From UHGV virus genome UHGV-0179107: a stretch of DNA of 13,840 bases; one strand, 5' to 3'. The notes beneath the pieces were generated by a model that was not told the origin of the DNA, did no database searches, and saw only the letters and a program-made list of their open reading frames with translations. The position numbers were made by a program, and so were the translations under genes. Of the stretch, positions 1 to 13,840 are shown one piece after another (the first letter of the stretch is position 1; every line of letters begins with the position of its first letter). This DNA comes from a virus.

Positions 1-432
1 CTGAGCAACCAGAGAGCCATCAAACATGCTGCTGATTCGTGCACTGTTGGCCCCTACACGTGCTTTTCTGTGCTGAACATCTCCAACACTACGATCTAAC
101 AGTTTTTGTTGTCTGGCGGCCTCTCTGGCTTGCTGCTGATAGAACTTGCGCATAGAGTTAAGTTCGGAATTGTTGCCCCCGGTCAGACGGCTGACAGCCT
201 GAGCACGTTGTTTCTTCTGTGCTCTGGCGATCTGCTCTTCCACCTTAGCGCGTGTTCTTTGTGTTCTGAGTACAGCCTGATTAGACTTAAAATCAGCTTT
301 AGCAATATCGTCGGTGGCTTTCTTCCAGGATTTTTTATAATCCTCAAGCCGTTTAACCTCTCTACGCCAGGAGGATTTATCAGAATCCCAGTAAATAACG
401 TTTGTTAGTCTGGCTACTTCCTTCATTGCCAT
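1..432 (-). CDS. Hypothetical coiled-coil-rich protein, N-terminal 144 codons only; gene continues past the window start
   Basis: Hand translation of the reverse complement gives an open frame from ATG 432-430 (MAMKEVARLTNVIYWDSDKSSWRREVKRLEDYKK...GSLVAQ) to position 1 with no stop. GAGG lies 6 nt upstream of the ATG, and the ATG is 1 nt after the TAA of the upstream gene. Not in the ORF track because it has no stop in the window. Overlapping plus-strand ORF 106..408 is low-complexity and judged spurious. Confidence 0.5.
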   Translation of the reverse strand, partial: MAMKEVARLTNVIYWDSDKSSWRREVKRLEDYKKSWKKATDDIAKADFKSNQAVLRTQRTRAKVEEQIARAQKKQRAQAVSRLTGGNNSELNSMRKFYQQQAREAARQQKLLDRSVGDVQHRKARVGANSARISSMFDGSLVAQ

Positions 433-433
433 T

Positions 434-670
434 TTATACCTCGCCTTGTCTTAAAGATTTTGATAATGAAATAGCCCTTTTCAGGGCCTCTTTATCAATA
501 TTATATTTCTCTGCCAGCTCTTCGATTGAGAGGCCTTCTGTGTGGGATCCACTTTTAATAATGGTGGACCCCTCTTTCGCTGACTCTGGCAGGTGACATA
601 CTGTCACCCCTTCGGGCGTGTCTTCGGAGTCCTTAACCAGTTTTTGATAAATCTTTTCGTAGGTATTCAT
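434..670 (-). CDS. Small protein (78 aa) with a probable helix-turn-helix near the C-terminus
   Basis: ORF track; ATG 670-668 sits 1 nt after the TGA of the upstream gene (translational coupling). The segment LSIEELAEKYNIDKEALKRAI looks HTH-like by eye. Function not recognised. Confidence 0.55.
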   Translation of the reverse strand: MNTYEKIYQKLVKDSEDTPEGVTVCHLPESAKEGSTIIKSGSHTEGLSIEELAEKYNIDKEALKRAISLSKSLRQGEV

Positions 671-671
671 A

Positions 672-1061
672 TCATTTACCTTTACGCTTCAGTGGGCACT
701 TATCTCCCACAGACCATACAAAAATATAATGGCGCTTGCTTTCAGCTTTAGGATTTAATAATTCTTTATGCAAATATCCGGCTGAAAGCATTTTATCGAT
801 CAGGTTTTTCACTCTTTGCCCTTCCTCAAATGTTTGTGCTTTAAAATAGAGATTTGGGAAGTTCTGACCTGTATATTTTCCATCTTCATATAAGCGGGTG
901 CATACCCAGCGACATAAATCATCATCGTTAAGATCACTAACGTGTGGTTTATCCTCACTGCTAAATAACGCCTGTTTAAAACGGGAGTATTTAAACTCCC
1001 CATCTTCCAGGAAATCACCCTCATCGAACTCAACTATCATTTCTTCAATATTCATAGGCAT
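672..1061 (-). CDS. Hypothetical protein (129 aa), acidic N-terminus
   Basis: ORF track. AAGGA is only 1-2 nt from the ATG at 1061, so the second in-frame ATG at 1055 (spacing about 7) may be the true start. No family recognised. Confidence 0.55.
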   Translation of the reverse strand: MPMNIEEMIVEFDEGDFLEDGEFKYSRFKQALFSSEDKPHVSDLNDDDLCRWVCTRLYEDGKYTGQNFPNLYFKAQTFEEGQRVKNLIDKMLSAGYLHKELLNPKAESKRHYIFVWSVGDKCPLKRKGK

Positions 1062-1080
1062 ATCCTTTTAGATAAACGTG

Positions 1081-1122
1081 AAAAGTAAGATAAATAAAGG
1101 CACCCCCATTTTTTGAGGGTGC
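1081..1122 (-). terminator. Candidate intrinsic terminator or attenuator inside the leftward operon
   Basis: On the minus strand, a GC-rich 6-bp stem (GCACCC / GGGTGC, plus 1100-1105 and 1117-1122) starts 7 nt after the TGA of the 147-aa gene and is followed by UUUAUUUAUCUUACUUUU. The stem is short, so strength is uncertain. Confidence 0.4.
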
Positions 1123-1129
1123 TTATTAA

Positions 1130-1573
1130 TCATTCAAGATTGACCAGTTTGAGAGGCTTCACCGCCTGCAGCATGGCCTGCATCATTCCTACGCTTATTT
1201 CGAAGAGGTCTGCCATGTTTTGAAGGCTGGCACCTTCTGCCTCAATCATTGATTTGGAGAGCGCCGCGATCACGAATCCATCCTTGGCGTTATCCCACAT
1301 GCTGAGGAGGGGATCATCTCCGTGCTGGCGCATAAGGTCTTGAATCATCCACAATCTACATGCCATAACCACCAAATCGACATAAAAAACATCACCATTG
1401 GCGGACTTGCATTCAGCAAAAGCGTGATGCCTGTGTTTTAAGAAGTGCTCTTTGTCACGGGTAAATGCCAGGGTGTTGGTAAACTTGCCATCTAAAAGAT
1501 CCTGGCGAACTTTTGAATCTTCAGCGTCGATAGCTTTGATAACCTGGGATAATAATTTAGCGATTTGAGACAT
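1130..1573 (-). CDS. Hypothetical protein (147 aa)
   Basis: ORF track; AGGA 8 nt upstream of ATG 1573-1571. No family recognised. Confidence 0.6.
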   Translation of the reverse strand: MSQIAKLLSQVIKAIDAEDSKVRQDLLDGKFTNTLAFTRDKEHFLKHRHHAFAECKSANGDVFYVDLVVMACRLWMIQDLMRQHGDDPLLSMWDNAKDGFVIAALSKSMIEAEGASLQNMADLFEISVGMMQAMLQAVKPLKLVNLE

Positions 1574-1593
1574 TTGGAATTCCTTAAATTAGA

Positions 1594-1671
1594 GCCCCGG
1601 AAGGGGTTAAACTCGTGCAAGTAGCCCTCGTCTCGAGGGTGTTAAAGTGAGTCGAAAATAAATAAATAAAT
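1594..1671 (-). promoter_or_regulatory. Intergenic element inside the operon: two short GC hairpins plus an (AAAT)4 tract
   Basis: Seen directly: CCCC-GGAA-GGGG (1595-1606), CCCTCG-TCT-CGAGGG (1625-1639) and (AAAT)x4 (1656-1671), all within the 112-nt spacer between the 162-aa and 147-aa genes. Role (mRNA processing, stability or attenuation) is unknown. Confidence 0.3.
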
Positions 1672-1685
1672 CGAAGAGATAAAAC

Positions 1686-2174
1686 TTAGGCTTTCTGGGC
1701 CATTGCTTTCTGGACTTTATTTCTATGGCGGCGGTAGATGAATATAAATTCGCGATAAGCACGACTACCGGGCTTAGGCAAACGTTGATTAAGCTCCTTA
1801 CGTGGCAGGATTTCACTCAACAAGCCCCATATATGAAAGCAGGTTACTTTTAATTCTTTTGCTATCTCTTCAATATTCATCCCACAATTCCACATTAAAA
1901 GAGATTTGCGGCGGCGATCTTCGAAGACATTTTTATCTCTATCTATGTCGTTATAGACACTGAGGGGAACTCGACACCGTGGATTCCAGGACTCATTATA
2001 TAGTTTTTGGACTTTCTCAAGTTTAACGCCTGTATATTCCGCCACGAATTCAGGGGTAAAGCCCTCGACTAATAAGTGTTTAGCCTGTCGTGTTGGTTGA
2101 TCATCACTGGGAAGATATTTCTGCAGTGCTACCAGTTTTTCGAATTGAGAATCAGAAAGATTAGATTTGAACAT
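1686..2174 (-). CDS. Putative transcription regulator (162 aa) with two HTH-like segments; C-terminal part resembles Mor/C-family phage activators
   Basis: ORF track; GGAG upstream of ATG 2174-2172. The segment RKSLLMWNCGMNIEEIAKELKVTCFHIWGLL matches, from memory, the W-N-x-G-x-N...E-L-A...V-T motif of phage Mu Mor-type activators. The family call is tentative. Confidence 0.55.
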   Translation of the reverse strand: MFKSNLSDSQFEKLVALQKYLPSDDQPTRQAKHLLVEGFTPEFVAEYTGVKLEKVQKLYNESWNPRCRVPLSVYNDIDRDKNVFEDRRRKSLLMWNCGMNIEEIAKELKVTCFHIWGLLSEILPRKELNQRLPKPGSRAYREFIFIYRRHRNKVQKAMAQKA

Positions 2175-2287
2175 GATTAATTCTCCGAACGTTTAAAAGA
2201 TCAGGGCAATCAATCTAGTTCTAGTTCTATATGTAATTAGTTTATTTAGTTTATTTGGGATAACAGGGGAGGAGTAATAATCAAAAA

Positions 2288-2446
2288 TTAATAATCTTCA
2301 TCATAATCATCGTCAAATGTTCTTAACTCTGCAATATAACCGTCTTTCGCGGTATGCTCATAATATTCTTGAGTCTGTTTATCATAAGCCAAATCATCAA
2401 GATATTCTTTGCTAACAACCATATCGGTTAAATCTAAAGTTATCAT
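2288..2446 (-). CDS. Small acidic protein (52 aa), below the ORF-track length cutoff
   Basis: Hand translation: MITLDLTDMVVSKEYLDDLAYDKQTQEYYEHTAKDGYIAELRTFDDDYDEDY, with AAGGA about 8 nt upstream of ATG 2446-2444. It fills the gap between the 305-aa and 162-aa genes on the same strand. Confidence 0.35.
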   Translation of the reverse strand: MITLDLTDMVVSKEYLDDLAYDKQTQEYYEHTAKDGYIAELRTFDDDYDEDY

Positions 2447-2479
2447 AAGAGTTTTCCTTAATTAACTGAAAGGTAAAAA

Positions 2480-3397
2480 TTATTTATCAAGTAAAACCAT
2501 CTTGCCCTCTCTTAAGCGGCAATTTTGCCATGCTGGGAAGGGGTTCAATAAATCTCCGGGATTGGCTTCAGTGTCCACAATAATTTCTATCCCTTCGTTT
2601 TCTTTTAATAGATTTGCTAGACGAAAGGCTTGATCAGTAAGATGCCAATATTTAGCAGAATTCATTATTTTGCCATCAATGGTGCCTTTAATATTTTTCA
2701 TCACCTCATAGCCATAGATTTCATCACGCAATACGCTAAGTTTTACCCTTCCTTTACCTTTATATTTAGCTTTAGCTGCCAGATATGCCGCCTTTGCTTC
2801 AGAATTCGTCAGAACTGGATAACCGTAAAAATCTTTCTCACGTTTGCCAGCGTCTCTACGGCGTTCTCTGCGTTCTTTTTTAGGTTGGGAAGGGGATTGC
2901 ATTGCCTCGGGCTTTTCAGGCTGCTGTGCGGCTTGTTTTGGGGCTTCCTGAGGCTGTTCTACTTTAGCGGCAGTCTTTCCGAAAGTCTCTAAGATGCCTT
3001 CTGGAATATTTACGCCCTTCTCGATGCACATATCCAACAATTGATCAGGGGTTTTCAGCAATTCGTAATGATTAGATTTGCCTTTTTTAACAATTGAAAT
3101 AAGCCCAGCATTTTCAAGAGATTTAATAGCGCTGGCTATTTTCCCGCGATCCTTTCTGAGTTGAGTTGCCAGTTTTTGCTCTGAAATATAAATTCCCTCA
3201 CCGTTAAAATGAAAGCCCACCATTTTTCCATAAATTAACATTTCAAAGTCTGTTAAATAAAAGCGCTCTTTAACTGTTCCCGTCTTTTTATTAGAGATTG
3301 TTGTTGCTACCGGTTTATCAAAATCATACTGAATAAAGAAATCGAAAGAGGGGGTAAAAGGTGCCCCCAGTCTATTTCCTGCCATAATTTCCCCCAT
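2480..3397 (-). CDS. Putative iteron-binding replication initiator / replisome organiser (305 aa): N-terminal winged-helix domain, Q/P/E/K-rich linker, C-terminal domain
   Basis: ORF track. The N-terminal domain (KERFYLTDFEMLIYGKMVGFHF...ISEQKLATQL...AIKSLENAGLISIVKKGKSNHYEL) has the winged-helix layout of lambda-O / phage replisome-organiser type proteins, followed by a basic low-complexity linker (KKERRERRRDAGKREKD). ATG 3397 overlaps the TAA of the upstream paralog; an alternative start at 3385 gives matching MA-N N-termini in both paralogs. Confidence 0.65.
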   Translation of the reverse strand: MGEIMAGNRLGAPFTPSFDFFIQYDFDKPVATTISNKKTGTVKERFYLTDFEMLIYGKMVGFHFNGEGIYISEQKLATQLRKDRGKIASAIKSLENAGLISIVKKGKSNHYELLKTPDQLLDMCIEKGVNIPEGILETFGKTAAKVEQPQEAPKQAAQQPEKPEAMQSPSQPKKERRERRRDAGKREKDFYGYPVLTNSEAKAAYLAAKAKYKGKGRVKLSVLRDEIYGYEVMKNIKGTIDGKIMNSAKYWHLTDQAFRLANLLKENEGIEIIVDTEANPGDLLNPFPAWQNCRLREGKMVLLDK

Positions 3398-3783
3398 TAA
3401 TATATAAAATATTCTCTAATACCCTGCTCATCGCACATCTTGCCAAGCTGATCAGGGGTAATTAGCAATTCGTAGATATTCGATTTGCCCTGTTCTCGTT
3501 TAACGTTTATCAGACCTGCAGCTTCTAATGTTTTGATTGCCGACCTTACTGTTTTCTCTGTAACATCATAATCGTCTGCTAATGTCTGCGTCGAAAGCTC
3601 TGAGATAATTATTTCTTCACCCTCCTTAAAAGAATAACTTACCATTTCACCATAAATTGTTACCTCCAACAAATTTAAGTGAAATCTTTCTTTATTGGTT
3701 GCAGTTTTTGCAATCGGATTTTTAAAAGTGTATTTGATGAAACGTTTAAAAATGGGAGTAAAATTTTCATCGTTGTTTGCCAT
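3397..3783 (-). CDS. Truncated paralog of the adjacent initiator (about 128 aa): winged-helix DNA-binding domain only
   Basis: Clear paralogy with the N-terminus of the 305-aa protein (NFTPIFKRFIKYTF vs PFTPSFDFFIQYDF; GKSNIYELLITPDQLGKMCDEQG vs GKSNHYELLKTPDQLLDMCIEKG). The track start at 3798 is a TTG that overlaps the SD; ATG 3783-3781 with GGAGG 8 nt upstream is the likely start. Confidence 0.65.
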   Translation of the reverse strand: MANNDENFTPIFKRFIKYTFKNPIAKTATNKERFHLNLLEVTIYGEMVSYSFKEGEEIIISELSTQTLADDYDVTEKTVRSAIKTLEAAGLINVKREQGKSNIYELLITPDQLGKMCDEQGIREYFIY

Positions 3784-3807
3784 AATATGATCCTCCAAGA
3801 TTATTTA

Positions 3808-4017
3808 TCAAAGTAGGTGTTTATATCTTTCCAGCTCACGCTCGATGCGGATAAGGTTAAGTTTTTCTATTGCCGCTTCAATATGTGGGTATTTTCCTTT
3901 GTTACGACGGATAAAAGCATAAACAGAATTTTTATAGAACTTGCCGCTAAGCACGTTCTCTACGATTTCGTCAGTAGTCCAGTTTACCAGGGGGCTGACT
4001 GGCCCGTTGCTCGCCAT
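3808..4017 (-). CDS. Small protein (69 aa), first gene of the leftward operon
   Basis: ORF track; perfect AGGAGG (plus 4025-4030) 7 nt upstream of ATG 4017-4015. The opposite-strand ORF 3817..4077 is low-complexity and rejected. Function unknown. Confidence 0.6.
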   Translation of the reverse strand: MASNGPVSPLVNWTTDEIVENVLSGKFYKNSVYAFIRRNKGKYPHIEAAIEKLNLIRIERELERYKHLL

Positions 4018-4138
4018 AATGAGGCCTCCTATAATTCGAATCAGAATGATATACGGTTAAAAAGAAACGGGAACTAATAGCTCCCGCCAGTTAATTAAGG
4101 AAATCCACTATGATGACTTAGTGTATCCCTATGCTTTA

Positions 4139-4170
4139 TATTTTATCAGACATTCGTCAAATTGTCAACA
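4139..4170 (-). promoter_or_regulatory. Candidate sigma70 promoter for the leftward operon (-35 TTGACA, 17-nt spacer, -10 TAAAAT)
   Basis: Minus-strand reading: TGTTGACAATTTGAcgaatgtctgaTAAAAT. The first 14 nt are identical to the -35 region of the capsid promoter at 8017-8030, and the spacers are similar. About 115 nt of leader would precede ATG 4017. Confidence 0.4.
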
Positions 4171-4340
4171 ATCTTTTTGTATTTATCTATCATTTTTTCT
4201 TCAAGATTGTCGATTGCAGTCACTCCGGCTATGTAGGCAACACCGCACCACAGTACAGCCAGGTTGATGATCGCTATTGCATCAGTAATTTCCACATTGA
4301 CCTCCGGATCTGTTTCTCCCCCTATTTATAATCTTATCAT

Positions 4341-4489
4341 ATTGTCAACCAATTGTCAATGAGAATTATTATCATTTAGGTGTGCTATAGGTACAAGCAA
4401 GTCCACAGCAAAGGGGTAAGCATTATTAATGGCCCCTACCGTGTCAAAACCAAAATCACTTATAGCATTTATTCAATAAGATTGTCAAT
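4341..4489 (-). promoter_or_regulatory. Three further ATTGTCAA(C/T) sites (4341-4349, 4352-4360, 4481-4489), each a TTGACA hexamer on the minus strand
   Basis: Seen directly. With the site at 4161-4169 this makes four same-orientation copies in about 330 bp. Possible -10 elements are weak (TAAGAT, TATAAG), so these may be operators or secondary promoters. Confidence 0.35.
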
Positions 4490-4801
4490 GGCCCACAACA
4501 TGCCTTCCTGCAGAAGGTTTGATTTTAATCAAATCCACGAAGTGGACCACAGGAGGGAGAGCACTTTTTGCCTTAGGCGCTCTAAAATCAATTCTAACGC
4601 GATTTAGAGGTCAGGTAATGCAATTGCACTACTCACCACAGTTAATGCAGCCAGAAGGCCATTTAGGGGCCCTATTTTTGATTTATGAGTGTCATATTAC
4701 GTGCATGCACGCGCGGGAGACTCTTTGCTGCCTCCTTCCGGCGCTGGCAAGCTTTCGGCAGCGGTCCACATTGTGGGCCTCATGCTGACGCATTCGCCGG
4801 A

Positions 4802-4963
4802 CCCACACAGACCCGAAGGGCTTAGCCATGGGCTAAGGTGCCGTAGGCACTCCCACACACAATTGGGTGACGTGTCATGTATGGAATACATTGTCACCCC
4901 ACACACAGGCCGACGTAGTCGGTTTAGCTGTATAGCTAAAGTCACAAAGTGACCCACACACAG
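4802..4963 (+). repeat. Array of about 50-bp units, each beginning with CCCACACACAG and containing different short perfect palindromes
   Basis: Punctuation motif at 4802, 4852, 4898 and 4954. Palindromes: CTTAGCC-ATG-GGCTAAG (4821-4837), GTGCC-GTA-GGCAC (4838-4850), GGGTGAC...GTCACCC (4865-4899), CCGAC-GTA-GTCGG (4910-4922), TTAGCT-GTAT-AGCTAA (4924-4939), GTCAC-AAA-GTGAC (4941-4953). Confidence 0.6.
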
Positions 4964-4966
4964 ATT

Positions 4967-5003
4967 GCCTAAAGAGTCGCTCATGCTCTTTAGGCTTTCA
5001 TTT
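4967..5003 (+). terminator. Candidate intrinsic terminator closing the hairpin array
   Basis: Perfect 10-bp stem GCCTAAAGAG / CTCTTTAGGC (4967-4976 and 4986-4995) with a 9-nt loop, followed by TTTCATTT. The minus-strand side has no U-tract. Confidence 0.4.
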
Positions 5004-5124
5004 GTGGGTTAAGCTTTTCCCTTAGAAAACCTTCCCCACTCTCTGATCCCTCCCCATCCCCCCTTGTTGGGGGATTATAGGGGGAGTTCTTTTTATTGAT
5101 CTATTCTCTTTATCTATTAGTGTG

Positions 5125-5270
5125 GGAAATCCCAGCATATATATGTAGGAAATTCCCGCATATATATGTTGGAAATACCAGCATATCCCTTTCTGTGTAT
5201 GGTTGAATATGCGGGAAATTCCAGCATATCGATCCCTATGCATGTGGGAACATGTGGGAAATACCGACAG
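5125..5270. repeat. Iteron array, candidate replication origin: GGAAAT-N-CC-(A/C)-GCATAT repeats
   Basis: Four 16-bp copies at 5125-5140, 5148-5163, 5171-5186 and 5214-5229. The first three are spaced exactly 23 bp (about two helical turns), the fourth is 43 bp further. Degenerate copies follow (tandem CATGTGGGAA x2 at 5241-5260; GGAAATACCGACAG at 5257-5270; GGAAATATGCAGATC at 5403-5417). Confidence 0.55.
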
Positions 5271-6332
5271 GTCTGTGTGGCTTAATTTGACTTGATATTG
5301 ACTAACAAAGGCCTTCGTAGAAGGTTTGAGATGAGCTCAAATCACCATATGTGACTAACAAACCTCTCTCCTCTCTCTTTGCTTTGATTTTCTCTCATGT
5401 GTGGGAAATATGCAGATCAACACCCTTTGATTTTATCGACAGGTATGTTGACACGCCCTACGGTTGTGAGGCCCGGGCATCATAAGTATGGCCCCTGGGG
5501 CAGTCCATCCTTCCCTCACACAGGACAATGAATACACTCCTTGCAGTCATGAATACATAAAGAACATGAAAGACTGTTCACACCAACACGCCGATAAATT
5601 GCCTGAAGAGGCTTACATGGTGGGATTGTTGTGTGGGTAATAGTGATCATGCTAACAGATTATGTTAATCAGATGTAAATTCCGATTTTGTGGTCTGCAG
5701 ATAGCAAACTATACTGGTTAGATGATCAGGGGAATGACTACAAAACAATCAAAAATGTGGGATATAGACATCTATACTTCTAATGTGCTGTGTGGGGTGT
5801 TAGTGCGTCCTAACCTCTAAGTCATTGATTTTAAGTGTTGGGAGAGATGCATTTAACATAATAGATCTTATCTACACTAATAAAGCGCACTACAAAATCT
5901 GATTTAAAAATCATGATAAGGAGGCCCAGAATTTACGTACAGTCACCTGAATAAATAATGTGCACAACATACAGCAAAGCTTAAGAATTAACATAATAGC
6001 AACGTGGTCAGTAGTGGTGTGATATTTGAGAATTGTTAGAAGAAAAAAGGGAGGTGGGGGAGCGCCTGCCTGGCACCTCAGACGAACATCTGACGGGTAT
6101 TAATACCGCTAATGGATATTTCTGACACCCACACCCAAGACCGCTTTCAGCACATAGCCATACACCGCACAGGATGCAATTGTGATAACAAAAAATGGGG
6201 GTGTAATAGGGTAGGCTGTCTTTCATCAAAATCACTTCTACGACGTTACCAGAGTGATAACAAGAAAACAGGCCTCTAAGATTATCTGTGCCTCGTTTTT
6301 AGCTTTTTGTGTGGTTACCAGGTGAAGAGGAA

Positions 6333-6497
6333 ATGTTAAAAACTGTTCATTTTATGCACAAACTAGTCAGGGTGATACCACAAAATGAGGCGCAAGAAAT
6401 CCAGCTGCAGATAATCTTGCAGCCAGATTTTGCAGTTTTTGAGGGTATGTTAAATTTGACAAAAATAGAGAAAAGGCTTATTAAGATAACTTATTGA
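6333..6497 (+). CDS. Possible small ORF (54 aa from ATG 6333), weak
   Basis: ORF track 6309..6497 starts at a GTG; the internal ATG 6333 has GGTGA about 7 nt upstream. It is the only moderately plausible ORF in the 2.7-kb gap, with no recognisable family. Could be non-coding. Confidence 0.2.
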   Translation: MLKTVHFMHKLVRVIPQNEAQEIQLQIILQPDFAVFEGMLNLTKIEKRLIKITY

Positions 6498-6571
6498 TTT
6501 TATTAGTATTATGAAAAAGGGTTACACCCTCTCTCTTACTCTGTCAACCGGGCGGTTGTGGCATAAAACGG

Positions 6572-6697
6572 ATTAAATCAATAAATAGGCATTAAATACC
6601 CATTAAATACCCCTTAAATAGGGGTTAATTGCTCAGGACTGAAAGGAGTGTAAATAGGGGATAAATAGGGGTTAATTGAGGGATAAATAAAAAGGGG
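6572..6697. repeat. AT-rich direct-repeat cluster: TAAATAGGGGTTAATTG x2 plus shorter TAAATAGG and ATTAAAT copies
   Basis: 17-mer at 6615-6631 and 6662-6678 (47 bp apart); TAAATAGGGG at 6651-6660; TAAATAGG at 6582-6589; ATTAAAT at 6572, 6591 and 6603. Lies just beyond the terminator of the membrane-protein operon. Confidence 0.55.
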
Positions 6698-6710
6698 CCG
6701 TGATGGCCCC
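6681..6710 (-). terminator. Rho-independent terminator of the leftward HTH / membrane-protein operon
   Basis: Minus strand: GGGGCC-AUCAC-GGCCCC (plus 6694-6710) followed by UUUUUAUUUAU, starting 8 nt after the TGA at 6721-6719. Confidence 0.7.
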
Positions 6711-6718
6711 CTGGTAGG

Positions 6719-7237
6719 TCAGAACAGTTTTTTGCTTTTTCTCCAACTAACGCCGCGTTTGCCTATGCTCAGCCAGCCGCCAGCGAATCGGGTACCTGCG
6801 GTAACACTAGCTCCCCTGGTGCCTACATGTGCATAAATACCTGCCCCACTGCTACCACCGCTTCTACGGCTTTTTCCGCCATCGATATCGAGGAGAGCAC
6901 AGATTGCACCCCACAAAAAGCCAACCAACCAATATACATATGCTAAGCCTAAAACACCCCAGGTTACCGCCCACCCCTCTAGACTAGTGGGGAAGTAGAA
7001 AGCATTGAGAACAGCATTTATAGGACGGATCAGGAGAGAATCTATAAAACCAATATCCACATGAAACGGGCCATCACCGAACTTGCTACTGCCAATAAAC
7101 AAGGTAGCAGGGTAAAAACAGATAGCCATTAACCAAGGCCCGGCTATCAAAAACGCTGCAGTGTACTGAAAGAACATTTTTACCAGTTCTTTAAAAAGCC
7201 TTTTATTTACTGATTCTTTGTCTTTCTGGAATAACAT
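6719..7237 (-). CDS. Membrane protein (172 aa) with two predicted transmembrane helices and a Gly/Ser/Arg-rich C-terminal tail
   Basis: ORF track. Hydrophobic segments FFQYTAAFLIAGPWLMAICFYPATLFI and WAVTWGVLGLAYVYWLVGFLWGAICALL; tail GKSRRSGGSSGAGIYAHVGTRGAS...SWRKSKK. A purine-rich SD-like stretch precedes ATG 7237. No family recognised. Confidence 0.65.
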   Translation of the reverse strand: MLFQKDKESVNKRLFKELVKMFFQYTAAFLIAGPWLMAICFYPATLFIGSSKFGDGPFHVDIGFIDSLLIRPINAVLNAFYFPTSLEGWAVTWGVLGLAYVYWLVGFLWGAICALLDIDGGKSRRSGGSSGAGIYAHVGTRGASVTAGTRFAGGWLSIGKRGVSWRKSKKLF

Positions 7238-7779: not shown

Positions 7780-8016
7780 ATCTATAACCTTTTGCGAGAA
7801 GTTGATTTGTTTGCTCGGTTGGGTGCTATCAATGCTCCCCTTCCTTGATTCGAACTATAGCCGGGTAAATCCCCGGAAAACATTGATATTGATCAAAAGA
7901 TATCTATCACGAATGAAAAAGTTATGATAGATGCTATGAGATGACGTATTGATGGGATTGATAGAGGTCTGAAAATACCGTTACCACGCTAATTATTAGA
8001 ATTTATATAATCAGGG

Positions 8017-8047
8017 TGTTGACAATTTGAGAGAATACTGATATAAT
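8017..8047 (+). promoter_or_regulatory. Consensus sigma70 promoter upstream of the capsid genes
   Basis: TTGACA (8019-8024), 17-nt spacer, TATAAT (8042-8047), with an AT-rich UP-like tract upstream (7985-8015). The 14-mer TGTTGACAATTTGA (8017-8030) is identical to the reverse complement of 4157-4170. Confidence 0.6.
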
Positions 8048-8190
8048 ATACATATACACCGTAAATCTTTGGTGAAAGTGATTTGCCGTATTTTCCTCCA
8101 AAGTAAAGGCGACCAGGTAGCGGTGCCGCCTTATAAATAACACTACCCTGATCATCGTTGAGTGGTCGATTAATTCTCCTATTGGGCTAG

Positions 8191-10359: not shown

Positions 10360-11163
10360 ATGGCTAGTGATGCTCTGACAGCTGCAAAACAAGCTGAGTC
10401 GAGATCTCCTGCATTCACTGTTATGTGTGGGGGATATTCACAAAACAAAAATATAATGGATGGCTTCAACTATACCGATAATGTGGCTATCTTCTTTGAC
10501 TCTATCTCTGATGTCAGCTATTCGTTCCCTGTTGAGAAATCGAGCTATGCGGTCGAGGATGGCACCACCATGTCAGACCATGCCGTCATTAAAGATAAAT
10601 CTGTCAGCTTTACGGGTATTATTACCTCTTCCCCTCATATCATCCGGAAAGAGAACTACATTGACCGGAACACTGATCCAGATAATCCCCGTGAGTCTAT
10701 GCGCCCTGCTGCCGCTGTTCAGGCACTTATGGAAATGAGAGACAAGCGCCAGCTAGTCAGCCTGGTGAGTGAAGATGCCGGACTCCTTGAGAACTTCATC
10801 ATGACGAAATGTGAAGTTAAGCGTAGCTCTTCCTCTGGCGACTGCATCACTATTGATTGCACCTTTGAAGAATTCCGCACCTTCAAGGTGAAGATGGTCG
10901 AAAATGCCGGAGTCTTCACTAACAGCAAGAAGGTGAACAAAACACAGCAAAAGGGTGCTGTTAACAGTGCTAAAGAGGGTAGTAACGCTGGCAATGCTGC
11001 TACGAAATCCACCAGGGCTAAGCATCGCGGGGAATATGCACAGGGAGAGGCAGCGGGAAAGATTGCCGCAGGTGATAAGTCTGTTGTGTCGAACGAGTTC
11101 CACGAAACGATGATCGATAAGGCCAACATGTTGCTTGATGACATAACGGAGATCAATAAATGA
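10360..11163 (+). CDS. Phage morphogenesis-module protein of unknown role (267 aa), with a Lys/Ala/Gly-rich low-complexity C-terminus
   Basis: ORF track 10351..11163. GGAGG (10345-10349) is 1 nt from ATG 10351 but 10 nt from ATG 10360, so 10360 is preferred. The stop overlaps the next start (ATGA at 11160-11163). Confidence 0.55.
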   Translation: MASDALTAAKQAESRSPAFTVMCGGYSQNKNIMDGFNYTDNVAIFFDSISDVSYSFPVEKSSYAVEDGTTMSDHAVIKDKSVSFTGIITSSPHIIRKENYIDRNTDPDNPRESMRPAAAVQALMEMRDKRQLVSLVSEDAGLLENFIMTKCEVKRSSSSGDCITIDCTFEEFRTFKVKMVENAGVFTNSKKVNKTQQKGAVNSAKEGSNAGNAATKSTRAKHRGEYAQGEAAGKIAAGDKSVVSNEFHETMIDKANMLLDDITEINK

Positions 11164-11618
11164 GTCCTAAAGTCCGGTGCACCATAGACAAGCGCATGAT
11201 GGATAAGCTGCATAAAGAGCTCTCACAGATGGAAGGTGTAGCGGTTGGCTGGGATGACGGAAAGCACTATAGCGGCCTGAATTATGCCACACTGGCAGCA
11301 ATTCATTCTGAGGGGTGGGGTGATTTGCCTAAGCGCTCCTTTATGGAATCTGCACACGCTGCAATGCTCTATGAGAGCCTGAGACACACAAAAGCCCTGA
11401 TTAATGCAATCGTAAAGGGTGGAAGCTCTGAGGCCGTCAGGAAGCGAATTGGCAAGCGATACGCCGACATTTTGGAGACTATCCTGATTAGTGGGCAATT
11501 CAGCAATAACAAGGTATCCCCACAATGGGCAAGCTATAAAGGCTTCAATGATGCCATGCGCCACTATGATGATTTGATCGGTGCAATCAAATACTGGTCA
11601 AATGTGGGGAGAGGTTGA
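11160..11618 (+). CDS. Putative tail-completion / virion-morphogenesis protein (152 aa), HK97 gp10 / P2 gpS-like
   Basis: ORF track; translationally coupled to the upstream gene. The segment NYATLAAIHSEGWGDLPKRSF resembles the YA-x-IH-x-FG motif recalled for these head-tail joining families. Assignment is from memory, not a search. Confidence 0.55.
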   Translation: MSPKVRCTIDKRMMDKLHKELSQMEGVAVGWDDGKHYSGLNYATLAAIHSEGWGDLPKRSFMESAHAAMLYESLRHTKALINAIVKGGSSEAVRKRIGKRYADILETILISGQFSNNKVSPQWASYKGFNDAMRHYDDLIGAIKYWSNVGRG

Positions 11619-11959
11619 AAAAGACAATAGTGTTCTTTTGAGGCCGTAGTGATACACCACAAATCAGCCCCTTTCCACTTCTTTTTCTCGCGATTGGTCC
11701 CTTGTGAGAATCCTTTATCAGGTATGCATTGTCCCGTGCATGAGCGGTCGATAGAGCCAGCCTCTTTCCCGGACTGGTTAGGATTTAGTGCGCTGATTGA
11801 GCGCCGCTATCACTGTTAGCCTGTTTATCGTTGCCTGGTTTGTGCATCACTGCACCCCCTGGGCACCGGACCCGCCTCAAAGGTCGGATCATCACAATTG
11901 GCGGGGCGGTTTTATAGTCGCTTTAAGGTTTATAGGCCGGAGTTGACTTACCTTCCGGC

Positions 11960-12007
11960 AACCTGCTAACATTAGTCTCGCGAGAGGTTGATTTTTGTTA
12001 GCAGGTT
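11960..12007. repeat. Perfect 12-bp inverted repeat with a nested palindrome in the convergent intergenic region
   Basis: AACCTGCTAACA (11960-11971) and TGTTAGCAGGTT (11996-12007), separated by 24 nt that contain the 10-bp palindrome TCTCGCGAGA (11976-11985). Confidence 0.6.
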
Positions 12008-12036
12008 CGCCCCGCATCAAAAGGATACCGGAGAAG

Positions 12037-12067
12037 AGCCCCTTTGTTAACACTTAGGGGCTTTTTT
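12037..12067 (+). terminator. Intrinsic terminator, plus-strand orientation
   Basis: AGCCCCT (12037-12043) pairs with AGGGGCT (12056-12062) around a 12-nt loop, followed by TTTTT (12063-12067). The minus-strand side has an A-run before the stem and no U-tract after it. Confidence 0.5.
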
Positions 12068-12145
12068 CTTGCCTGGAGTTTATCCGGTTAAGCTAACTTA
12101 TTGATTTTGATCACAATATCAGTAAAGCTGCACTATCTTCCAGCA

Positions 12146-13840
12146 TTAGAAAAGCTGATTAGATTCCTGTGTGGCTTTCCAATCCAACTGATCGCTGACT
12201 TCCTTCTGGATCACCCTGGCAATTCCCCCCTCATCAATGGTTATCTCCCATTTGCCGGAGATCTCACCATGAGGCACCACATTAACCTGAGCAGGTTGAT
12301 AGCCGCCATTCTGAATAGCCGTACCCGTGCTAGGAGTAGGACGTGACGGGCTAATTGTTGGATATGGATTAAAGGAAGCTCCTTTGCTGATGTAGCTATG
12401 GTTATAGGCCCCTGGCTTGGTCATAGCATCCTGCTCATCACTGAGAAGGCCTTTAGATTTAGCCCACTCCCCGAACTGATCAGCCTTGCTTTGCATCCAT
12501 CCTCTGAACTTCTCACCTACCGTCTTAGCGCCAAGTGCGCCAGCGACACCAACACCCACACCTGCGGCACTGCCAGCGGCTAATGCTGTTGTTGGGCTTC
12601 CAGCGACTGCCCCGCCAGCACCCTTAACGAGATTGCCCAGACCTGGAATCTTGCCTATCAGAGAAATCAGTTGGGTGACAAGTGAAACAAATCCGGTTAG
12701 AGGGGAAAGCAGTGTAGTAATAACTTTCAGACCAGCTAAGCCAACCACCAGTTTTCCGATAAGCTCGCCAACCTCTGATCCGGTCATGCCGAACTCTTTA
12801 GCCTTAACCTCGATATAGCCCTTAGCGAAGCCTACCCAATACATGATCTCACGCATGGCAGCCCCGACTGCCTCACCAAACTGTTTTGCCGCGCTCCCGC
12901 TGCCGTCCATATCAGTGGTGAGGTCTTCGAAGATGGAGATTAGAGATTCAGATAAGCTAATAACGCCATCTGCAGGATCTACAACACCCATAAACTGAAT
13001 CGCCAGCTCGTTAAAGCTGTTTTTCATGCGCTGCATTGCTACTTCTGGCTGTTTCATGGATTCAGCAAAAGCTTTAGTTTCTTTTGCAGCACCCCAGATT
13101 TTCACCAGAGAAGGAAGAAGCTTGTCCAGGGTGATTTTGCCATCTTTAAGGGCTTTATCGAATTCCTGGGCATTCTTGATGATTCCGGCATCAATAGCGG
13201 CCTGTTGGAAGTCTTGTTGTGAGCCTGCAAAGGCTTCTGCCAGCTGCCCCCGCAGCTCCTCCGCCATGACTTTATTTTTTGAAGCCATTTGTTGGACCGC
13301 AACAAGCGCCCTGTTTTGTTGCTCACCAGTAGCACCCACTGAGCGGCCTTTAATAGCCATAGCCTCAAAAAGAGCCTGCTTATCAGATTCCTTCATGGTG
13401 GGGGTAGCGGCAGCAAAACGCATATAGCCGCCTTCCATCTCACGCTGATCCATCCCGTAGGTGTAGGCTGTGTTCTTGATGAAAGCCATCTGTTGGTCAG
13501 TCTTGGCTTTATCATCCTTGTTCTGGGCCATTAAACCGAAGTAGGCACTGTTGCGATCTGCAAGGCTGCTCATAGCACCACTAACAGCACGCTGAACACC
13601 CCAGCCAGCGGCAGTAAGGCCGATAGCTATCTTGCCTAAAGTGGAATTCAGTTTCCCCAGGTTGTCATGCAGCTTGGCCCCTGTGATCGCAACTTTATCC
13701 AGTCTGCTCTGGAATTTTCCGGCTTCTGCTGTTGCCATCTTCATTTCAGCTCTGAGTCGGGCCATTTTCTGATTATAGGTCTGCAGGTTGATAGCCCCTT
13801 TAGCATAATCAGCATTAACTCTCTGAATTCTGGATTGGAA
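12146..13840 (-). CDS. Tail tape measure protein, C-terminal about 564 codons; start codon lies beyond the window end
   Basis: Hand translation shows the frame is open from 13840 to the stop at 12148-12146; the track's M at 13765 is internal. Contains a TMP-core-like segment (TGEQQNRALVAVQQMASKNKVMAEELRGQLAEAF), coiled-coil N-terminal part, and a Gly/Ala-rich hydrophobic segment typical of tape measure proteins. Confidence 0.8.
   Translation of the reverse strand, partial: FQSRIQRVNADYAKGAINLQTYNQKMARLRAEMKMATAEAGKFQSRLDKVAITGAKLHDNLGKLNSTLGKIAIGLTAAGWGVQRAVSGAMSSLADRNSAYFGLMAQNKDDKAKTDQQMAFIKNTAYTYGMDQREMEGGYMRFAAATPTMKESDKQALFEAMAIKGRSVGATGEQQNRALVAVQQMASKNKVMAEELRGQLAEAFAGSQQDFQQAAIDAGIIKNAQEFDKALKDGKITLDKLLPSLVKIWGAAKETKAFAESMKQPEVAMQRMKNSFNELAIQFMGVVDPADGVISLSESLISIFEDLTTDMDGSGSAAKQFGEAVGAAMREIMYWVGFAKGYIEVKAKEFGMTGSEVGELIGKLVVGLAGLKVITTLLSPLTGFVSLVTQLISLIGKIPGLGNLVKGAGGAVAGSPTTALAAGSAAGVGVGVAGALGAKTVGEKFRGWMQSKADQFGEWAKSKGLLSDEQDAMTKPGAYNHSYISKGASFNPYPTISPSRPTPSTGTAIQNGGYQPAQVNVVPHGEISGKWEITIDEGGIARVIQKEVSDQLDWKATQESNQLF

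Follow-up and report, generated by a model that had tools for sequence, protein, structure and literature searches.

A conserved structured element between phage-derived operons of a 13.8-kb plasmid, homologous to a candidate replicon core of small Col3M-type plasmids

The stretch of DNA analyzed here (the window) is the UHGV virus genome UHGV-0179107, 13,840 nt in length. Between the end of its + strand neck gene (position 11618) and the end of its - strand tape measure gene (12146) lies a spacer of 527 bp (11619-12145), which contains a conserved module of ~400 nt (about 11660-12075) that is read on the + strand. The window is a complete circular plasmid and not a phage genome devoid of its tail-tip genes, and the module is homologous to a non-coding element of small enterobacterial plasmids. 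The spacer is interpreted here, with moderate confidence, as the captured replicon core of a small plasmid, Rep-independent and transcription-primed, ColE1-like in its working and with a folded + strand transcript. In qnrD plasmids, PlasmidFinder and MOB-suite call an element of this type Col3M.

The window represents the whole circle, because the open reading frame (ORF) of the tape measure protein continues without a stop across the right end into positions 1-432; it comprises 708 aa in all, is continuous over the junction and has a single stop at its end (the annotated gene of the relatives encodes 706 aa). At the nucleotide level, five plasmids of PLSDB and seven complete E. coli assemblies match the window at 92-98%, and none of 50,697 phage records does.

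An element held in common with small plasmids

The first lead outside the 13.8-kb plasmid family came from a second lineage (L015; ENA ERZ27303200 k141_759421, positions 1-5650), which has the same gene order and a neck protein of 50% identity, and whose cluster members are E. coli assemblies with contigs of 13.9-15 kb: matches to its spacer were found in small E. coli plasmids (1.7-7.5 kb). In the window, the region ~11660-12075 aligns with a ~340-nt non-coding element in such plasmids, the homologous positions being 11690-12075. Among the carriers are pSUH-6 (1,718 bp), Klebsiella, Citrobacter and Enterobacter plasmids of 3.4-4.6 kb, and Col3M-typed qnrD plasmids of Proteus, Providencia and E. 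coli. A profile derived solely from the small-plasmid elements matches the window at 11690-11973 (+ strand, E 4.4e-10), L015 at 1e-10 and the other satellite lineages at 1e-10 to 2e-9; searched against phage loci, it finds nothing. A 256-nt core of the element is present in at least 291 PLSDB plasmids (236 with at least 80% coverage), most of them 1.7-7.6 kb in size.

All-against-all comparison of six small plasmids (1.7-4.6 kb), which are otherwise unrelated, reveals the element as the only region common to all of them, and the window encodes no relative of any of their proteins. A plasmid of 1.7 kb must spend most of its sequence on essentials; as the sole part in common, the element is most likely the protein-independent replication origin of these plasmids. 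Its surroundings are those of ColE1-type plasmids: in pSUH-6 and two further plasmids of Enterobacteriaceae (L026, L027), a ColE1-type primosome assembly site (pas) follows the element in the same orientation, ~70-100 nt beyond the terminal hairpin. Further on, pSUH-6, typed as mobilizable by MOB-suite, has a ColE1-type bom/oriT-like sequence; its other recognizable parts are two unrelated small ORFs and a Xer-like site (both this site and bom were read from the sequence). L027 carries a convergent rop gene. The layout of element, pas, bom and rop in the small plasmids therefore reproduces the ColE1 order of RNAII/ori, pas, bom and rop. Two plasmids, L023 (NZ_CP048315.1) and L024 (NZ_CP123200.1), contain a classical ColE1 replicon with detectable RNAI as well as a copy of the pSUH-6-type element; this coexistence in cointegrates would fit compatibility of ColE1 and pSUH-6-type modules. 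Two other identities were considered for the element and rejected: it is not a cer/Xer site, the Xer-like core of pSUH-6 lying elsewhere, nor an oriT, the bom/nic sequence of pSUH-6 being outside it.

Published work has found that the 2.68-kb qnrD plasmid tolerates deletion of qnrD, ORF3 and ORF4 (PMC8789287); replication of the qnrD plasmid has been termed ‘not yet characterized’ (PMC3913671), and a review lists a 4.27-kb qnrD plasmid as ColE1-type (PMC6764390). Literature searches on the plasmid family, Col3M replication and pIGWZ12 yielded no mechanism.

Architecture and conserved helices

The spacer is non-coding and under selection, and few parts of the plasmid are as well conserved. Its ORFs are short, do not start with ATG and are not credible; protein coding was rejected, as indels in T and C runs shift the frames in relatives and no ORF is kept in L015. 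The window contains no tRNA or tmRNA, and the families of Rfam 15 (including GOLLD, ROOL, HEARO, OLE and group I/II introns) gave nothing at gathering score, with sub-threshold terminator-like matches only. In an alignment of nine complete plasmids, the bins of 11700-12100 have a mean pairwise identity of 0.97-0.99 with 94-98% invariant columns, so that the spacer is conserved at least as well as the flanking structural genes, whereas identity falls to 0.3-0.7 in other intergenic regions (0.3-0.6), the Rep region and the C-terminus of the tape measure protein. The diverged plasmid L016 has an identity of 92-100% in the spacer, compared to 76-92% over most of the neck gene and 66-72% in the capsid and Dit genes. 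The spacer of L015 consists of blocks of exact identity with changed sequence between them. Folding of the spacer yields -168.4 kcal/mol on the + strand (z -5.15) versus a z of -2.9 on the - strand, in agreement with a preliminary description of the region, in which a structured spacer of ~530 bp between convergent operons had been noted. The following features can be distinguished, in window coordinates:

11625-11713 (+): 5' leader, present in the satellite lineages only; near-invariant in eight plasmids except for a T-run indel
11646-11653 (5' arm) with 11809-11816: long-range helix of the leader, kept in L015 by three compensatory changes
11714-11830 (+): Domain A, a three-way junction; match to covariance model R1 at E 6.8e-17, the window being one of the seven sequences used to build R1
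11719-11723 with 11819-11823: helix P1, CAGGT with GCCTG
11723-11729 with 11736-11742: P2 hairpin
11755-11762 with 11771-11779: P4 hairpin, with an invariant AGAGC and the conserved loop CTCTTTCCC
11831-11900 (+): variable domain B, with a hairpin (11835-11868) and the conserved block ACCCGCCTCAAAGGTC; longer here than in relatives
11901-12015 (+): Domain C, closed by the long-range helix P7 (11901-11909 with 12007-12015)
11943-11972 (+): promoter-like site, -35 TTGACT, 18-nt spacer and extended -10 TGCTAACAT, facing the terminal hairpin
11960-12007 (+): inverted-repeat hairpin, arms 11960-11971 and 11996-12007 (12/12 complementary) with 24 nt between them
12025-12029 (+): ATACC, complementary to GGTAT at 11721-11725
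12031-12043 with 12056-12068 (+): terminal hairpin, followed by the T run TTTTTTCTT; the unit from ATACC to the T run spans 12025-12072
12073-12117: conserved tail of the spacer, containing a 21-bp sequence (12088-12108); conserved in the family alignment
12118-12145: variable junction patch adjoining the tape measure stop codon, with indels of 0-50 bp in relatives

Domain A has three invariant blocks, TTATCAGGT, AGAGC and GCCTGTTTATC, the first and last of which form P1. Domain C holds a TTAWWGTCG motif (11912-11920), the promoter-like site and the inverted-repeat hairpin.

The hallmark of the element is a set of five helices (P2, P4, P7, the inverted-repeat hairpin and the terminal hairpin) that are kept across lineages on the + strand with different sequences. 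P7 occurs at the same place and with the same distance between its arms (87-102 nt) in ten sequences and in five sequence versions: GCGGGGCGG / TCGCCCCGC, GCTGATA / TATCAGC, TGCAGATAT / GTATCTGCG, TGCAGATGTC / GGCATCTGCA and GTGCATTTG / TGAATGCAC; in L016 its arms were read by eye, the automated search having returned a different 8-bp pair. Four of its pairs are compensatory between the window and L015. The other four hairpins were predicted independently in all ten sequences, with differing stems; those of the inverted-repeat hairpin range from 8 to 16 bp, differ in sequence and include covarying pairs. Comparison of the window with L015 alone yields 11 stems without gaps, each 7 bp or longer, that pair in both sequences, with 13 compensatory pairs, as compared to 0.2 stems and 0.1 compensatory pairs in column shuffles. 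RNAalifold finds 17-18 pairs with double changes, and the consensus fold of a wide alignment amounts to -32.5 kcal/mol with 56 pairs on the + strand versus -13.3 kcal/mol with 37 pairs on the - strand. When the minimum free energy (MFE) fold of the whole window spacer is imposed on L015, 26 of 61 changed pairs are kept, which is near the random 37.5%; the individual helices and the column-shuffle control are therefore relied upon instead.

The inverted repeat is the version, in the 13.8-kb plasmids, of a hairpin that is kept in all lineages, its 5' arm carrying TGnTAnnAT. The perfect 12-bp repeat and the palindrome nested within it (TCTCGCGAGA, 11976-11985) had been described before and withstand scrutiny: 12 bp were reached in none of 300 dinucleotide shuffles of the spacer (maximum, 10), and as RNA the repeat folds at -24.9 kcal/mol (z -5.8). 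In each of four lineages (the window, L015, pSUH-6 and a qnrD plasmid), an independent call placed the promoter-like site at the corresponding position; its hexamers and the TG are conserved, the spacer sequence between the hexamers varies and the terminator hairpin follows after ~90-100 nt.

On the + strand, the terminal hairpin has a stability of -23.2 kcal/mol (z -4.65), versus -16.7 kcal/mol (z -3.0) and no T run on the - strand. A GC-rich hairpin followed by a T run, as in intrinsic terminators, is thus present on the + strand; a consensus terminator scan missed it only because of its 12-nt loop. Hairpin and T run are kept in position across all lineages with different stem sequences, and mark an intrinsic terminator or the 3' end of the element. 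The terminator that had been placed at 12037-12067 is recovered in this form. A further terminator-like structure, proposed at 11866-11910, does not hold: its z is -1.6, 12 of 200 shuffles fold as well, and its 3' arm (GCGGGGCG, 11901-11908) is changed in L015 and pairs instead with 12007-12015, forming P7, which compensatory changes preserve in every lineage.

Compared to the Col3M and cryptic small plasmids (2.66-2.68 kb and the 4.27-kb qnrD plasmid; pSUH-6), the element of the window is homologous and has the same invariant blocks, the same helices (P2, P4, P7 and those of the inverted repeat and the terminal hairpin) and the same internal promoter-like site. In contrast to these plasmids, it is embedded in 13.8 kb between phage structural operons, is extended by the satellite-specific 5' leader and a longer variable domain, and has Rep-like genes and iteron-like repeats alongside it.

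Proposed priming of replication and alternative functions

A transcription-primed replicon core would work as follows: host RNA polymerase would transcribe the element on the + strand, and a primer near the terminal hairpin would be supplied either by the folded transcript or by a short RNA started at the internal promoter. From this primer, a host DNA polymerase would begin leading-strand synthesis in rightward direction. The zone 12025-12072 would be the site of the RNA-to-DNA transition. Priming would not require a plasmid Rep protein, as in ColE1-type origins. We infer three parts of this scheme: the origin function, RNA rather than single-stranded DNA as the folded form, and the priming route. 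The resemblance to ColE1 lies in a structured sense transcript region of several hundred nt and, for the small-plasmid relatives, in the succession of element, pas and bom (pSUH-6) with a convergent rop (L027); Rep independence may be a further likeness, as there is no plasmid protein in common. The differences to the ColE1 origin are a strong hairpin with T run at the end of the element, an internal sense promoter-like site, and a G-rich loop and C-rich stretch for hybrid formation that are not evident in the element. As judged from its context, the element may be called ColE1-like; it is not demonstrably a member of the ColE1 family.

Several points weigh against a ColE1-like replicon core. 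The proposed assignment as origin derives from the element being the only common part of the minimal plasmids. ColE1 RNAII does not end in a strong intrinsic terminator, as the element does. RNAI (Rfam RF00106) is absent from the window even at E values up to 5; it is also absent from six small-plasmid relatives, and was detected in the positive controls L023 and L024. Homology to RNAII, suspected by eye from collinear short motifs, is unsupported: with the ColE1 regions of L023 and L024, the nhmmer profile, model R1 and alignment versus shuffles (z about 0) all fail. The window is devoid of pas and bom downstream of the element; the profile match ends at ~12083, and only ~75 nt separate the terminal hairpin from the tape measure stop codon. 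The small plasmids have no common protein that could act as initiator, yet the window encodes Rep-like helix-turn-helix (HTH) proteins together with iteron-like repeats; these could be the real origin, with another role for the element. The consensus structures were derived from MAFFT alignments, in which some helices are misaligned, the 3' arms of the satellites among them. Finally, covariation cannot separate RNA from single-stranded DNA. P7 spans the promoter-like site and the folding molecule is therefore longer than the short transcript: it is either RNA from read-through or upstream initiation, or single-stranded DNA.

Another possibility is a single-strand initiation signal or lagging-strand origin that folds as single-stranded DNA, similar to ssi/sso elements or Frpo of the F plasmid; its hairpin would recreate the promoter from which a primer is made on the displaced strand. 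The TGnTAnnAT motif in the 5' arm of the conserved hairpin would be in line with it, as would the strand-specific structure and the tolerance of DNA hairpins to G-T pairs. We nevertheless regard this reading as improbable, as the -35 hexamer is situated in a loop and not in a stem, a ColE1-type pas is already available downstream of the element in the small plasmids, the plasmids are without a rolling-circle Rep, and it would still have to be explained where the 1.7-kb plasmids have their primary origin. Alternatively, the element may be a stand-alone regulatory or structural non-coding RNA acting in maintenance or host manipulation (in copy-number control, incompatibility or stability, or as a small RNA of ~90 nt), rather than an origin. 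Its conserved helices favor the + strand, the conserved promoter-like site is situated ~90-100 nt upstream of the conserved terminator hairpin and the window offers a separate Rep/iteron candidate origin. Against this stands that plasmids of 1.7-2.7 kb without a common protein need an origin and have the element as their only common region, that the molecule folded by P7, which spans the promoter-like site, exceeds the short transcript and that no Rfam family matches; such an RNA is unlikely, if worth considering. The preliminary description had likewise suggested a small structured RNA. A structured RNA-like element is indeed present, not as a discrete 170-nt RNA at 11900-12070 but as a module of ~400 nt.

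Two explanations would derive the spacer from phage biology. According to the one, it is a bidirectional termination zone and the scar of a recombination that joined two phage gene blocks, its hairpins doing no more than ending transcription. The operons are convergent, the strong + strand terminator hairpin also forms on the - strand, the patch at 12118-12145 is variable by indels and the gene order is rearranged with respect to related phages. A terminator, however, needs ~40 nt and not ~400 nt at 97-99% conservation, the element is homologous to small plasmids without phage genes, compensatory changes keep its long-range helices and the - strand hairpin has no T run; there is accordingly little probability in this explanation as a full account. 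What stands of the two corresponding earlier suggestions is that the element ends in a + strand terminator, and that a foreign module with an indel patch lies between two phage-derived blocks; the region is structured and functional rather than an idle gap. The terminal hairpin of the proposed replicon core probably also ends late transcription of the + strand, so that a ‘termination zone’ is compatible but secondary. On the - strand, small hairpins in the junction patch of some relatives could end the operon; the patch has an identity of 0.70 in its 100-bp bin. According to the other explanation, the spacer is a pac, cos or att site recognized by the terminase or integrase of a helper and used in packaging of a satellite. 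The plasmid encodes virion proteins and no terminase or portal protein is recognized in it, so that a packaging site would be needed in cis, and the inverted repeat could bind a protein. But the spacer shows no similarity to any of the 50,697 phage records, whether searched for near (megablast) or distant (blastn) relatives, two patterns of conserved blocks are absent from IMG/VR, hundreds of tiny plasmids without phage genes carry the element, and the arms of the repeat, 24 nt apart, covary as a helix. We consider a site of this kind very improbable.

A bolder version of the origin proposal, rather doubtful at present, is that the element is a second class of protein-independent plasmid origin, with a structured transcript of ~350-400 nt unrelated in sequence to ColE1 RNAII/RNAI, and that late transcription, when triggered by an infecting phiTE/rV5-like helper phage, reads into the origin and boosts replication of a plasmid-borne satellite. 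The element lies directly downstream of phage-type late genes. No terminator is predicted between the neck gene and the element in the family, and read-through of the late operon into the element is therefore possible. If true, helper infection would be coupled to satellite amplification.

The host plasmid

The plasmid family comprises at least ten circular E. coli members of 13.2-13.9 kb, isolated from humans, chicken, cattle and pig on five continents. Metagenomes of JGI contained one further member (contig L018), a tape measure search of IMG/VR found none, and the representative genomes of GTDB, searched with a neck-protein profile and one DNA pattern, gave nothing. MOB-suite assigns no replicon type to the family, and no paper on it was found in the literature. 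Neck homologues on contigs of 7-10 kb (L019-L021) were considered as satellites and rejected, since the contigs are fragments of large phages. One record, NZ_CP043822.1 (p3RM10740, 39,610 bp; L004), matches the family in three places; it looks like three related units of ~13 kb joined in a multimer or cointegrate.

Only five virion genes are recognizable (decoration-like, major capsid, Dit-like, neck and tape measure), which are related to those of phiTE/rV5-like lytic myoviruses. In the window, no portal, terminase, sheath or tube gene was recognized, and likewise no integrase, portal, protease or terminase on the plasmid. The gene products of the + strand operon, in order, and the tape measure gene of the - strand are:

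Product 1 (+): small decoration-like protein, so named from its size and its position upstream of the capsid gene; no family match
Product 2 (+): major capsid protein (phrog_29)
Product 3 (+): protein of 86 aa
Product 4 (+): Dit-like protein (PF21821), encoded upstream of the neck gene
Product 5 (+), last gene, 11160-11618: neck protein of 152 aa (PHROG ‘tail completion or Neck1’, phrog_222, 7.9e-29)
12146-13840 (-), continuing into 1-432: tape measure gene, of which 12146-13840 holds the C-terminal 565 codons (PF20155, phrog_5255)

Proteins of Vequintavirinae and of phiTE-like myoviruses, phages with genomes of ~140-150 kb, share 45-49% identity with the neck protein. In these related phages, the neck homologue is placed between the adaptor and head-completion genes, in the order adaptor, neck homologue, head completion, terminator, sheath, tube, chaperone and tape measure, and a homologue of the Dit-like gene (35% identity) directly follows the tape measure gene on the same strand. 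The - strand operon of the plasmid consists of the Rep-like HTH genes, four small genes and then the tape measure gene, which ends at 12146 as the last gene on its strand with nothing downstream; this arrangement, noticed earlier, is confirmed and is indeed unusual in the light of the related phages. Tail-tip genes have not simply been lost, as had been suspected: the Dit-like gene is present on the other strand, and the DNA is a small plasmid with a rearranged subset of virion genes. The C-terminal third of the tape measure protein (12300-12800) is hypervariable, with identities of 0.45-0.68 among plasmids that are otherwise 93-97% identical, and megablast alignments break there; this suggests diversifying selection or recombination.

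Taken together with its own replication functions, the virion gene subset of a lytic myovirus group likens the plasmid to phage satellites with some virion proteins of their own, such as capsid-forming phage-inducible chromosomal islands (PICIs), P4 and PICI-like elements (PLE), from which it differs in being plasmid-borne and in encoding a tape measure, a Dit-like and a neck protein. It is a candidate plasmid-borne phage satellite or assembly-interference element, which appears to be undescribed.

Beside the element, the plasmid may have a second replication system made up of the Rep-like HTH proteins and iteron-like repeats. Two repeat arrays look like iterons for these proteins, and the DNA around them varies between plasmids:

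5121-5278: repeat array 1, five copies of a unit of ~23-26 nt (TGTGGGAAATCCCAGCATAT...), spaced by 23 and 43 bp
6582-6689: repeat array 2, 11-bp units TAAATAGGGG/TAAATACCCC

Variation within the family is greatest in the Rep region, where two genes of the HTH_36 type adjoin (2480-3397 and 3397-3798) and have a diverged 73-nt repeat in common (3015-3087 and 3422-3494); the second gene is missing in most relatives. The 21-bp sequence in the tail of the spacer (TTAAGCTAACTTATTGATTTT, 12088-12108) recurs at 6481-6501, beside the array of 11-bp repeats, with 20 of 21 positions identical, and may represent a protein-binding site common to the spacer edge and the repeat-array region. At 4137-4182 and 8005-8050, two copies of a 46-nt inverted repeat (74% complementary, 3.8 kb apart) are situated at the heads of two divergent gene blocks; they contain TTGACA...TATAAT-like sequences and may be matched promoters or operators. 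Another stretch of ~900 bp (5600-6500) has no annotated gene in relatives and no convincing ORF, yet is conserved at 92-97%; its GC skew and AT skew are both positive. Phage records contain no match to it, and searches of the conserved non-coding region 5500-6720 against phages (megablast and blastn) found no similarity. It could be another functional non-coding region.

As a kind of element, the module is known though poorly studied, and its presence in a plasmid made up largely of phage virion genes appears to be new. What was a vague ‘structured spacer’ receives a specific assignment that can be tested, as the replicon core of a large and mechanistically unstudied family of tiny plasmids, some of them cryptic and some with resistance genes such as qnrD. 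The Col3M-type family thereby gains a conserved secondary-structure model with targets for mutagenesis. The surrounding ‘phage’ sequence becomes a complete small plasmid, in which a plasmid-type module is found together with five virion genes that stem from lytic myoviruses. If the element is indeed an origin, it would explain how the plasmid is maintained between infections, and it would provide a compact origin for vector design, which is possibly compatible with ColE1.

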